The position numbers and the translations under genes were made by a program. Positions 41,430-44,192 of a stretch of DNA of 64,000 nt are shown here, piece after piece (position 1 is the first letter of the stretch; each line of letters starts with the position of its first letter). This DNA comes from an uncultured Chlamydiae bacterium. Its GTDB lineage: Bacteria > Chlamydiota > Chlamydiia > Chlamydiales > JAJFMA01. A model generated the notes under the pieces. It was not told the DNA's origin and did not search any database. It saw nothing but the letters and a program-made list of their open reading frames with translations. The DNA lies in assembly GCA_963713615.1 (NCBI GenBank), contig CAVQMM010000001.1, positions 2,656,001-2,720,000 of the forward strand, written 5' to 3'.

Positions 41430-42821
41430 ATGCACATTCGTACACTTAGTATCATTCTTGCTTGGGCCACTTCAGCACTTTGTGCCGATTGGCGGCCAGA
41501 CATCTACATCTATTCCGACTTTGGAGGAGGGCAAAACCATGCCCATGAGCCAATTGCTGACTGGCAGACAGCCATTGAATTAGCAGAAGAGGGCTGGAAG
41601 CTGACTCATCATCCAAAAATTTTCATCAACGACGCAGCAACCCCGCTTCATCCTCAAAGAGCTGCAGGTCAAGTCGCGGCAACCTTTCCTTATTTGGGCC
41701 CAAAGGAGACCTCGACGATTGAACGCATTGTCGTTCACGTGGTGGATCCTTCGGTCGGCAATGCAAGTCAGCATCGACGGGCATTAGTTTTGCGCCGCGA
41801 TGGAACTCTGTTCATCGGTCCCGATAATGGAACTTTGAGCGCAGCATGCCCACCCGGTTCGCTAGCGATGATCTGGGAGATCGATATCCCACGTCTCAGC
41901 GCTTCGACGGGTCTAGATGTAGCGGCAGGAGGAACCTTTCATGGACGCGACGTCTTCGCAGCAGCAGGATACCTTTTATCCGCTGGACGTTTATCACCTG
42001 AAGACATTGGCAAGCCCTATCAAACGGCTGAGTTGGCCGTCCGTGTTTCTCCAATAGGGGAGAGTTCTAAATGCATCACTTTTCAAGAGCTTCCCACAAC
42101 ACGATGGATGTTAGAGGTGGGTTCGGACTCGTTATTCTCCGACGCCTATTTCTTAGCTATCGTACAGTCACCCCTCTATGTTGATGCTTCGCATGCACAG
42201 CTATTTATCGTAGATGACCGCACGTTGACCGAACGTGTAGCCATACTGAACCGCAAAACCCAGAATCTTTATATCGGGCCCAACAATGGCTTGGGAACAG
42301 GTTTCTTTATGGGATTTGATAAAGAGGATATTTGGATGGCTGAAGTATCCCAGGCCGTTTATGAGATAATCAAGGCTACTTCAAATGTCGCTCTGGTACG
42401 TGACCTCATTTTTAGACAGCCCAGGTTTAAGGAGGAGCTGGTTGTGGTGGACCTGCTAGCCAGAGAAAATGAGAGTAAACATATCTCAGGACACGTGTGG
42501 GCAGATGCCTATGGCAATCTCAAAACAACTCTTGATAGTGAGTTATATCAAAGCTTAATCGATGAAGGTTACACCAATTTAACCGTTGCACTGAATGGAG
42601 TATCCAAACAGGTGCGTATAGCAGACTCTTTTGCTGATGTCCCTGCAGGGACTCCGTTCGCCTATGTGGGCAGCTCTGGAGCTGTAGGACCAAATCCGCA
42701 CCGTTCTCGTCGTTATGTCGAATTGACTACCAATGGCATCAACGGGCAATTCGGGGTTGATCTATTTGATAATCCCCAATCTGGACAAGTCATCGAATTT
42801 TATTTTACAAAAAACATTTAA
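41430..42821 (+). CDS. SAM hydrolase / hydroxide adenosyltransferase (DUF62, chlorinase-fluorinase superfamily) with a putative signal peptide
   Basis: SDFG, VHVVDP.VG...R, FIGPDNG, TFHGRDVF, DAYGNL.T and GSSG motifs; hydrophobic N-terminus ending SALCA. Confidence 0.8.
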   Translation: MHIRTLSIILAWATSALCADWRPDIYIYSDFGGGQNHAHEPIADWQTAIELAEEGWKLTHHPKIFINDAATPLHPQRAAGQVAATFPYLGPKETSTIERIVVHVVDPSVGNASQHRRALVLRRDGTLFIGPDNGTLSAACPPGSLAMIWEIDIPRLSASTGLDVAAGGTFHGRDVFAAAGYLLSAGRLSPEDIGKPYQTAELAVRVSPIGESSKCITFQELPTTRWMLEVGSDSLFSDAYFLAIVQSPLYVDASHAQLFIVDDRTLTERVAILNRKTQNLYIGPNNGLGTGFFMGFDKEDIWMAEVSQAVYEIIKATSNVALVRDLIFRQPRFKEELVVVDLLARENESKHISGHVWADAYGNLKTTLDSELYQSLIDEGYTNLTVALNGVSKQVRIADSFADVPAGTPFAYVGSSGAVGPNPHRSRRYVELTTNGINGQFGVDLFDNPQSGQVIEFYFTKNI

Positions 42822-42839
42822 GTTTAGGAGCTCATAACC

Positions 42840-44192
42840 ATGAAACGTGAATCATGGCGTAACCATGCAGGTTTCGCGCTGGCAGCAATGGGATCAGCAA
42901 TTGGCCTGGCGAGCATCGTCCGCTTTCCCTATATGGTAGCCGATCACGGCGGTGCAGCTTTTATCGTCGTGTATCTATTAAGTTTACTGATCATTGGCAT
43001 CCCCATCTTACTCGGTGAAGTAACTATGGGGAGGGCGACGCAAAAAAATCCTTACGGGGCCTTCTCTAAACTAGGTAAGGCACCTTTTTGGAAAGCAGGT
43101 GGTGCCTGGGTGCTCATGACAGCCTTCCTTGTCAGCGCCTTTTACAGCGCCTTGTCAGGGTGGATCTGTGGGTATCTCGTGGAGGCAGTCATGAATAATC
43201 TGTCAGGTCTCCACACTTCCGAATTAGCCACAAGCCATTTTAAGGGCCTTCTAGCAAGTCCCCTATGGGCTCTTGGATATCACTTTGTATTTCTGACTGT
43301 GAGCGTAATGGTCGTCTACGCAGGTCTGCGGGATGGCATCGAGCGCGGTTGTAAAGTCATGATGCCCTTGCTTCTAGTGACATTGCTATTGCTCGTCCTT
43401 AAGGGAATAACGCTGAATAACTCTAGCGAAGCGTTGCATTACTTATTCACGCCTGACTGGAGTCAAATTACCCCCAGTGTCGTTCTACTTGCCTTGGGAC
43501 AATCCTTCTTTAGCCTAAGCCTTGGCCAGGGAACGATGATTACTTACGGTAGCTATCTACCTAAGGGCACTCCCTTCGCATGGAACTGCATCGCTGTCGC
43601 CTTATCGGTAGCGTTGATTTCTATCATGGCCTCTATAGCGGTCTTTACGATTGTTTTTTCCGCGGGAATGGAAGCTCAGGGTGGATTAGGACTCATGTTT
43701 CAAACGCTCCCTGTTGTTTTTAGCAACATGGCCGGTGGATATATCCTGGGTTCCGTCTTTTTCGTATTAGTAGCTTTGGCTGCATTGACGTCAGAGATCT
43801 CAGCTCTGGAACCTGCCATAGCCTTTCTAGTGGATGAGCGGGGCTGGACGCGAAAGAATGCTGCAATAGGCGTAGGAACCGTAGCCTTTCTGATTGGAGT
43901 GCCCTGTGCCTTGTCTACAAACATTCTCGCTAATTGGACTGTGTGGGGTAGCAACATCTTAGAACTCTTCGATCTGGTTGCAACCACCATCCTAGTGCCC
44001 ATCGGTGGACTTCTCGGAGTCTTGCTAGTAGCATGGCGTTGGGGCTTTGGATATGCCTTTGAGGAACTGACTGGTGGATCACCGCAAGGGTATGAAGCGG
44101 GCCGCCTCTATTGGAAGACATGCTTAAAGTACTTGGCACCTGCTTTGATTTTGGTCATCTTCTTCAGCAACCTAGGTTTTTTTGGAGCATAA
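42840..44192 (+). CDS. Sodium-dependent transporter, NSS/SNF family (probable amino-acid symporter)
   Basis: RE.W....GF..AA.GSAIGL...RFPY...GG.AF, ALGQSFFSLSLG and AALTS.IS.LEP motifs; about 11 TMs. Confidence 0.93.
   Translation: MKRESWRNHAGFALAAMGSAIGLASIVRFPYMVADHGGAAFIVVYLLSLLIIGIPILLGEVTMGRATQKNPYGAFSKLGKAPFWKAGGAWVLMTAFLVSAFYSALSGWICGYLVEAVMNNLSGLHTSELATSHFKGLLASPLWALGYHFVFLTVSVMVVYAGLRDGIERGCKVMMPLLLVTLLLLVLKGITLNNSSEALHYLFTPDWSQITPSVVLLALGQSFFSLSLGQGTMITYGSYLPKGTPFAWNCIAVALSVALISIMASIAVFTIVFSAGMEAQGGLGLMFQTLPVVFSNMAGGYILGSVFFVLVALAALTSEISALEPAIAFLVDERGWTRKNAAIGVGTVAFLIGVPCALSTNILANWTVWGSNILELFDLVATTILVPIGGLLGVLLVAWRWGFGYAFEELTGGSPQGYEAGRLYWKTCLKYLAPALILVIFFSNLGFFGA

Follow-up and report, generated by a model that had tools for sequence, protein, structure and literature searches.

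The window analysed here is a stretch of 64,000 nucleotides (nt) from an uncultured Chlamydiae bacterium (GenBank assembly GCA_963713615.1, contig CAVQMM010000001.1, positions 2,656,001 to 2,720,000 of the forward strand). It contains, on the same strand, a gene for a long protein of the DUF62 family, i.e., the S-adenosylmethionine (SAM) hydrolases, and a gene for a transporter of the NSS family. Both are preceded by two short leader open reading frames (ORFs) with methionine codons. The two genes and the parts of the enzyme are the following:

41430..42821, plus strand: long DUF62 / SAM-hydrolase-family protein of 463 amino acids (aa), assigned by Pfam, homologues, fold and a genome scan
41430..41486, plus strand: predicted Sec signal peptide (residues 1-19), from hydropathy, the cleavage site being taken from the C-x-A pattern of relatives
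41493..42044, plus strand: N1, a complete DUF62 N-domain, with D30, D106 and H171 invariant, R116 mostly Pro in relatives and D68 replacing the His of D-I-T-H
42093..42419, plus strand: N2', a second, degenerate N-domain without DFG, VVDP and TFHGRD motifs, packing on the C-domain as a normal protomer
42465..42818, plus strand: C-domain, with conserved D359, Y361, N363 and F401 and a subfamily insert with invariant N422, R425 and R428
42840..44192, plus strand: NSS/SLC6-family transporter of 450 aa, assigned by Pfam, alignment with MhsT and clade comparison

The two ORFs are separated by 18 bp and a Shine-Dalgarno (SD)-like motif is found before each. In Pfam, the enzyme scores 76.3 bits for SAM_HAT_N (cut-off 26.3) and 32.3 for SAM_HAT_C (cut-off 25.5), and the transporter scores 191.3 for SNF. 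The ORF list and Pfam agree with the coordinates, length, spacing and family identities given in the original prediction, which was made from the sequence alone. The motifs it had pointed out, i.e., VVDP (D106), R116-R117, TFHG (H171), FIGPDNG and YIGPNNG, are all found in the protein.

Architecture, export and active site of the long DUF62 enzyme

The chain appears to be laid out as N1-[N2'+C], i.e., as three domains and not as the canonical two-domain protomer (about 260 aa), because the fragment 207-463 modelled alone (predicted local distance difference test, pLDDT, 92.6) fits whole canonical protomers (root-mean-square deviation, rmsd, 2.7-3.5 Å over 192-216 residues, Z 12.4-16.9) while N1+C of the full model superposes poorly on one canonical chain (rmsd 15-17 Å). 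The AlphaFold model of the full chain has a pLDDT of 90.2 and a predicted template modelling score of 0.90. In Foldseek, all its matches with E no higher than 0.001 are DUF62 or halogenase structures. The internal partial duplication noticed originally is recovered by hhalign (84% probability, E 7.5e-6, 24 columns) and corresponds, structurally, to an entire second N-domain. In solved DUF62s the active site is located between protomers of a trimer (PMC12120602). N1 likely takes the place of the neighbouring subunit's N-domain, most simply within one chain, which would give a single-chain active site, because N1 and C each retain their own half of the active-site residues and N2' is without DFG, VVDP and TFHGRD.

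The enzyme has 61 homologues at E < 1e-70 (325-552 aa, several of them partial), and these 62 proteins define the long subfamily. The limit is sharp: the next matches are ordinary DUF62s of 250-330 aa, with E of 1e-10 or weaker. Among 1.84 billion representatives, a profile search retrieves no more than 27 with E of 1e-30 or below. The long enzyme is rare within the phylum, being present in 4/401 Chlamydiota genomes, in 4/7 genomes of its own family and in 2/73 of another family. It has so far been placed only in Chlamydiota. Most homologues are without a taxon on record, so its taxonomic range may be wider. Of 31 taxon-labelled loci, the seven with the long enzyme belong to Parachlamydia, Parachlamydiales, Rhabdochlamydia, Chlamydiae or uncultured bacteria, the other 24 being distant short DUF62s. 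The genome search gives a single DUF62 gene in this genome, and the scores of its product for the two NCBIfam (R)-SAM hydrolase equivalogs are far below the cut-offs (80.7 vs. 350 and 44.9 vs. 470). It may be added that a small gene with a tRNA-binding domain (PF01588; L006:5118-5591, minus strand) lies, divergent, upstream of one long DUF62.

To judge from its N-terminus, the enzyme is likely exported by the Sec pathway to the periplasm. According to a hydropathy rule, 53 of the 62 long members carry a hydrophobic N-terminal extension, and most of the nine members without it appear truncated at their start. The signal peptide of the original prediction is thus retained as a hydrophobic N-terminus, its cleavage being deduced from the C-x-A pattern. 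On the contrary, the accompanying statement that DUF62 enzymes are usually cytoplasmic was too strong: by the same rule the extension is found in 31/58 ordinary short homologues (P0063-P0120). Exported DUF62s therefore appear common, and export is apparently no peculiarity of the long subfamily.

Concerning the catalytic triad, D106 and H171 are invariant (50/50 aligned), and D30, D359, Y361, N363 and F401 are nearly so. At the position in register with the triad Arg, 54 of the 60 parsed long members (2 unparsed) have Pro and only 2 have Arg, R116 of this protein included; 53/55 parsed short homologues have Arg there, and halogenases have Thr. The triad Arg was defined as the first basic residue of E-R-R/K, the register being set by the following strand and by comparison of MJ1651 wild type with its Arg mutant. 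The loop is longer in the long subfamily, and the register comes from the alignment and not from superposed side chains. The triad numbering of PH0463, which we take to be D68/R75/H127, was searched for in the literature and no source was found. The Asp, the His and, in this register, the Arg of the original prediction are thus present in this protein, yet an intact triad is not a trait of its subfamily. For DUF62 hydrolases, strict conservation of a His-Arg-Asp triad is described in PMC10491745. The long subfamily has also gained N422, R425 and R428, all invariant, within the C-domain insert. By alignment the active site appears rebuilt, and an Arg from this insert possibly replaces the lost triad Arg.

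Compared with known DUF62 hydrolases (PH0463, 1WU8/2WR8; TM, 2ZBU; MJ1651, 2F4N/22UY; StDUF62; SaciSAMH), the enzyme shares both folds (Foldseek E 1e-13 to 2e-7) and keeps the triad Asp and His and the DFG and D-x-Y/F-G-N motifs. It differs from them by: (i) the signal peptide; (ii) about 140 extra residues, i.e., the second N-domain; (iii) the likely control by methionine leaders; (iv) Pro at the position of the triad Arg in most of the subfamily; (v) I-N-D instead of D-I-T-H; (vi) the conserved C-domain insert. With the halogenases SalL, ClA1 and FlA it has in common the fold, the absence of the triad Arg in most members and the release of methionine from SAM, which is here a prediction. Nevertheless, a halogenase identity was rejected, since the long family keeps D-P-G-V-G and T-F-H-G where halogenases have Y-P-E-T-G and T-W-Y-G.

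The active-site residues in which the subfamily departs from tested DUF62s (Pro for Arg, Asp for His and the new invariant N422, R425 and R428) also fit a unit that is regulated by methionine but whose substrate is a different adenosyl or sulfonium compound, or (R,S)-SAM alone, so that a minor source of methionine and not the bulk of SAM would be salvaged. Characterised DUF62s are (R)-selective (bioRxiv 2025.08.29.672840; PMC12120602; PMC10491745), in agreement with this explanation. Another substrate is disfavoured by the near-invariance of D30, D106, H171, D359, Y361, N363 and F401 and by the fact that SAM is the only adenosyl compound giving methionine directly, no methionine synthase having been found in the genome that would use homocysteine. 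A restriction to (R,S)-SAM agrees poorly with StDUF62, which attacks (S,S)-SAM too once (R,S)-SAM is exhausted (PMC12120602). This explanation is rather unlikely. The substrate is presumed to be SAM, and the abundant (S,S) form is probably hydrolysed as well.

Methionine-codon leaders

Upstream of the enzyme gene, the following elements are found:

41115..41143, plus strand: sigma-70-type promoter, 11/12 consensus matches, 17-nt spacer
41151..41228, plus strand: leader ORF 1, 25 codons, with two internal Met codons near its end (M-x-x-x-M-R-G-stop)
41217..41273, plus strand: hairpin 1, 6-bp stem, its 5' arm beginning at the last Met codon and the stop codon lying in the loop
41298..41360, plus strand: leader ORF 2, 20 codons, with an SD-like AGGA upstream (M-x-x-x-M-R-T-stop)
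41349..41405, plus strand: hairpin 2, with the 6-bp stem of hairpin 1 and a G-poor tail (3 G in 40 nt) after it

The promoter is the best of the 4 sites found, shuffled sequences yielding 6.5 sites with at least 9 matches. Leader 1 is likely leaderless, because its start codon is only 7 nt after the -10 box. The pyrimidine tail after hairpin 1 is also G-poor (3 G in 40 nt). Hairpin 1 was scored terminator-like and hairpin 2 was not; across the leaders the tails are poor in G and the U-run is variable. Rfam gives 0 matches at E up to 1 over window positions 39900-44700, i.e., no known riboswitch or T-box, and all matches of an Atlas search are below 0.9. In the same genome, neither metK nor the other two NSS genes have a visible methionine leader.

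The leader is not restricted to this locus. All leaders with at least 250 nt of upstream DNA (11/11) contain the element, 15 elements in total, four of these leaders being tandem. Runs of up to four Met codons are observed, and the stem exists in three variants in which pairing is always kept by compensatory changes. Seven of these leaders precede the enzyme without the transporter (L002, L003, L004, L006, L007, L037, L038) and two the transporter without the enzyme (L109, L110). For L001, L036 and L039 the upstream DNA is too short for a leader to be read, and for L040 there is none.

A fixed rule (at least 2 Met, strict stem, G-poor tail), drawn up after the leaders had been seen, recovers 10/11 family leaders but only 1/2216 upstream regions of the own genome, namely this operon, and 0/26 other chlamydial NSS genes. 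A looser rule based on RNAfold gives 10/11 for the family, 12/2216 for the background and 1-2/39 for metN leaders (1/39 with a stricter regular expression). L003 is missed by both scripted rules, and nevertheless its leader is visible. The first leader pattern was not sufficient as a marker by itself: 63/401 genomes were matched and, among the 30 loci inspected, only DUF62/NSS loci are leaders, the remaining matches being mostly intragenic. The third match of this pattern in the own genome (C1:3522008) was likewise discarded, as it lies inside a gene of the opposite strand.

Genes from which the rule had not been drawn were covered by a pattern search of 341 Chlamydiota genomes, which gives 60 places (control: 4). 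Among the 42 places inspected (30 returned and 12 picked for a likely stem), 6 are intergenic. Two of these 6 have a matched stem and a G-poor tail, and both precede metN of a metN-metI-metQ operon. The other four were set aside, being without stem or G-poor tail; a scan of three genes downstream of them shows no relation to methionine. The metN calls rest on TIGR02314 as best match (344 and 371 bits, below the 499.7 cut-off), on a NIL domain in the one scanned and on metQ about 1.9 kb downstream. Forty further metQ regions, out of 121 genomes with metQ, were then examined and 39 had metN. The element with at least 1 Met is found in 4/39 of these metN leaders vs. 5/2216 in the background (Fisher p 9e-6), and with at least 2 Met in 2/39 (p 9e-4), related genomes not being independent in either case. 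Met codons are seen in the metN leaders of L153, L156, L217, L221, L223 and L224, and partially in L190 and L216; for most of the other metN genes the upstream gap is short and contains no methionine leader. The element thus marks methionine-supply genes in part of the phylum.

Like trpL, hisL, thrL and the leaders with Cys runs of actinobacterial cys operons, the leaders here consist of a short ORF that has cognate codons near its stop and is followed by a hairpin or pyrimidine tract, and they are located before supply genes. For the Cys leaders, a mechanism via Rho has been proposed (PMC1262725). Compared with these attenuators, the codons here are Met, the last of them forms the stem's 5' arm, the elements are often tandem and no antiterminator is seen. 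When charged Met-tRNA is low, ribosomes would stall on the Met codons of the leader. With a ribosome stalled there, the hairpin's 5' arm and the first part of the pyrimidine tail would be covered, and termination, whether intrinsic or Rho-dependent, would be blocked. A ribosome reaching the stop codon in the loop would depart, and termination would be allowed. Rho is present in the genome. According to PMC2965389, almost no attenuator predicted in Chlamydiota has a function. A literature search gave no paper on Met-codon leader attenuators, most subscription journals being outside its coverage.

Transporter, linkage and surroundings

The transporter matches MhsT (4US3) over its full length (E 3e-89) and is above the cut-off for PF00209 / NF037979. 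It belongs to a clade of 61 proteins with 61-100% identity (FastTree support 0.99 on 13 sampled members). As in MhsT, LeuT and the general chlamydial NSSs, the TM8 Na2 motif is retained. Unlike them, the clade has Ser in place of the TM1 Asn (S25 here; 60/60 covered members) and Val or Ile in place of the TM7 Asp (V257 here; 58/61 members), two partial members being left out of the residue counts. Outside the clade, Asn and Asp are each kept in 56/57 NSSs. In LeuT and MhsT these positions belong to the Na1 site (LeuT N27 and N286), and the clade is thus without two Na1-site residues. The basal members P0174, P0175 and P0177 keep the TM7 Asp and have Gly at the TM6 Thr, i.e., a different loss of a Na1 ligand. 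Gln at the position of LeuT F259 and Glu at that of S356 are common to other chlamydial NSSs; TM8 Glu was thus abandoned as a special trait of the linked transporter, since 52/57 ordinary chlamydial NSSs share it. The clade is present in only 4/400 genomes, 3 of which also have the long enzyme; this genome has three NSS genes.

The enzyme and the transporter are recurrently paired, yet the pairing is optional. Among 12 other distinct enzyme loci, an NSS is directly downstream in three (L001, L036 and L005, the NSS of L005 being of the ordinary type), and two NSS loci are without the enzyme. At L036 (L036:1521-2169) the NSS after the enzyme is in pieces on a metagenome contig, which may reflect an assembly error or decay. 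An indirect measure of linkage is also available: for 9/61 homologues the size of the longest contig is identical to that of an NSS, all nine of them in the clade, whereas offset controls give a mean of 0.42 (over 1000 offsets, a maximum of 6 and mostly 0-1). The tree distances of the enzyme and the transporter are correlated (Mantel r 0.9, 11 pairs, kin not being independent). In G101, a genome of the same genus, the transporter is at the syntenic site without the enzyme (L109:6030-7668) and a more distant long DUF62 is found elsewhere (L002:1-1870), each with its own methionine leader.

These data also bear on a reading in which the DUF62 protein would be a non-catalytic periplasmic protein that binds SAM or methionine and feeds the NSS, the latter taking up intact SAM or another cationic methionine source whose charge would replace Na1. 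The loss of the triad Arg in most members, the NSS clade without Na1 Asn (60/60) or Asp (58/61) and with TM8 Glu, and the co-divergence of enzyme and NSS are in its favour. It is nevertheless improbable, given that the catalytic Asp and His are invariant, the NSS is missing at 9/12 other loci and the enzyme at two NSS loci, TM8 Glu is common to ordinary chlamydial NSSs and metK is present in all carriers tested.

Around the pair, repeats and a transposase are observed. A nested repeat resembling a miniature inverted-repeat transposable element (MITE), with terminal inverted repeats, occupies window positions 40262-41001, and a fragment of it is found at about 44208-44360. In the whole genome it has 192 merged loci, 61 of them of at least 600 bp. 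A 910-aa ORF (37766-40498, minus strand) extends into this repeat; its start is likely at 40021 (751 aa), its L109 orthologue being of 745 aa. Its product is a membrane-anchored alpha/beta hydrolase (chlorophyllase/PETase-like matches) which adjoins btpA, with the same gene order in L109. Closely 3' of the transporter lies an IS110-family transposase (44623-45819, plus strand). One peat metatranscriptome contains short 100%-identical contigs within both genes; since similar contigs are scattered across window positions 21000-40200, they were dropped as evidence of expression, giving no sign of transcription or regulation.

Proposed role in methionine supply

The genome is 99.1% complete. It contains metK, and no match to MetE, MetH/homocysteine methyltransferase or MetQ was found in it; for MetB/C there are only five weak matches to Cys/Met pyridoxal-phosphate enzymes (best E 7e-7). 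This gene content supports the methionine-scavenging core of the original prediction. As metK is also present in 5/5 other long-enzyme genomes tested, the need is for methionine rather than SAM. In Chlamydia trachomatis, which is without metK, CTL843 likewise gives a chlamydial route to host SAM, which is imported intact (PMC3104491); the genome studied here does have metK, and SAM would be cleaved outside to obtain its methionine. A mutual exclusion of MetQ and the transporter clade was considered and rejected, as MetQ is found in G373 and G423.

Taken together, the unit is, on sequence grounds, comparable to DUF62 hydrolases, NSS importers and attenuators of the leader-peptide type. It departs from them in architecture, equivalog score and Na1, and no antiterminator was seen. 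It very probably serves methionine supply under methionine control. The best explanation, which is held to be probable as a whole, is that the exported DUF62 splits outside SAM, that the NSS imports methionine and that the leaders switch the unit on at low Met-tRNA. The enzyme, once exported, would hydrolyse outside (host-derived) SAM to adenosine and methionine; the latter would enter through the NSS, to be used for protein and by MetK. Methionine as the NSS substrate is suggested by the leader and the gene content of the genome, and the host cell by the phylum, Chlamydiota; the substrate of the enzyme and its epimer are weaker steps. As regards the original prediction, the core of SAM-to-methionine scavenging stands (no methionine synthase or MetQ, metK present, methionine leaders at the enzyme, the NSS and metN) and the conservation of the gene pair stands partially, adjacency being found at 3/12 other loci and 9/12 being without a downstream NSS. 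No support was found for the depletion of host methylation, the host origin of SAM or secretion past the periplasm.

The enzyme could also clean up the inactive (R,S)-SAM of the cell itself, in which case its proximity to the transporter and leaders would be incidental. This role is proposed for archaeal enzymes (bioRxiv 2025.08.29.672840), although the physiological role of DUF62 is disputed and may not be this one (PMC12120602). Here the DUF62 gene is the sole one, and homocysteine methyltransferase, the other known route for (R,S)-SAM, was not found in the genome. However, the conserved export signal would separate the enzyme from the cytoplasmic pool, the methionine leader is retained with the enzyme in 9 loci and only 4 of the 401 Chlamydiota genomes searched have the enzyme, so that a clean-up role is very improbable. 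A secreted factor draining host SAM and lowering host methylation is just as hard to credit: the Sec signal is compatible with onward secretion and four ORFs at window positions 47794-50781 (minus strand), recognised by eye, are presumably type II secretion pseudopilins, but the Met-codon leader and the linkage to an importer fit nutrition, and no secretion motif, host target or effector context was found, no search aimed at them having been made.

Several points weigh against the scavenging of outside SAM as formulated above. (i) For the enzyme: the His of D-I-T-H is missing in 62/62 long members, with Asp instead in 59/62; with Arg to Pro in most members, catalysis or substrate may differ; tested DUF62 enzymes favour (R,S)-SAM, a minor pool (bioRxiv 2025.08.29.672840; PMC12120602). 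(ii) For transport: SAM would have to cross the inclusion and outer membranes to reach the periplasm; the scheme does not account for the missing Na1 residues of the NSS; no NupC-type nucleoside transporter was found in the genome for adenosine; MetQ is present too in 2 of the 4 genomes tested, i.e., G373 and G423. (iii) For linkage: 9/12 other enzyme loci have no NSS downstream, and in G101 the two genes are on different contigs. (iv) For the leaders: the rule has a post-hoc origin, 35/39 metN leaders are without the element under it, the U-run is not always adjacent to the stem, and no antiterminator appears in the single fold made (z -0.28), no dedicated search having been run.

Three features would be new together in environmental chlamydiae, to which this genome is assigned: a duplicated single-chain (S,S)-SAM hydrolase, a Na1-free methionine NSS and a methionine attenuator in which the sensing codon is the hairpin arm. 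That all three hold is possible but doubtful. A literature search, with result lists partly covered and subscription journals mostly outside, gave no paper on exported, duplicated or methionine-regulated DUF62s. If true, the proposal would give a nutritional role to the DUF62 family and the first methionine-sensing control at the RNA level in Chlamydiota. With a likely exported DUF62, a methionine leader and an importer in a genome where no methionine synthase was found, this role becomes directly testable. The leader is a candidate methionine-sensing attenuator in a phylum where almost none is annotated, and it suggests a substrate for the Na1-deficient NSS clade. Finally, the duplication would represent a natural single-chain version of a family, including fluorinase, whose active site normally requires a trimer.

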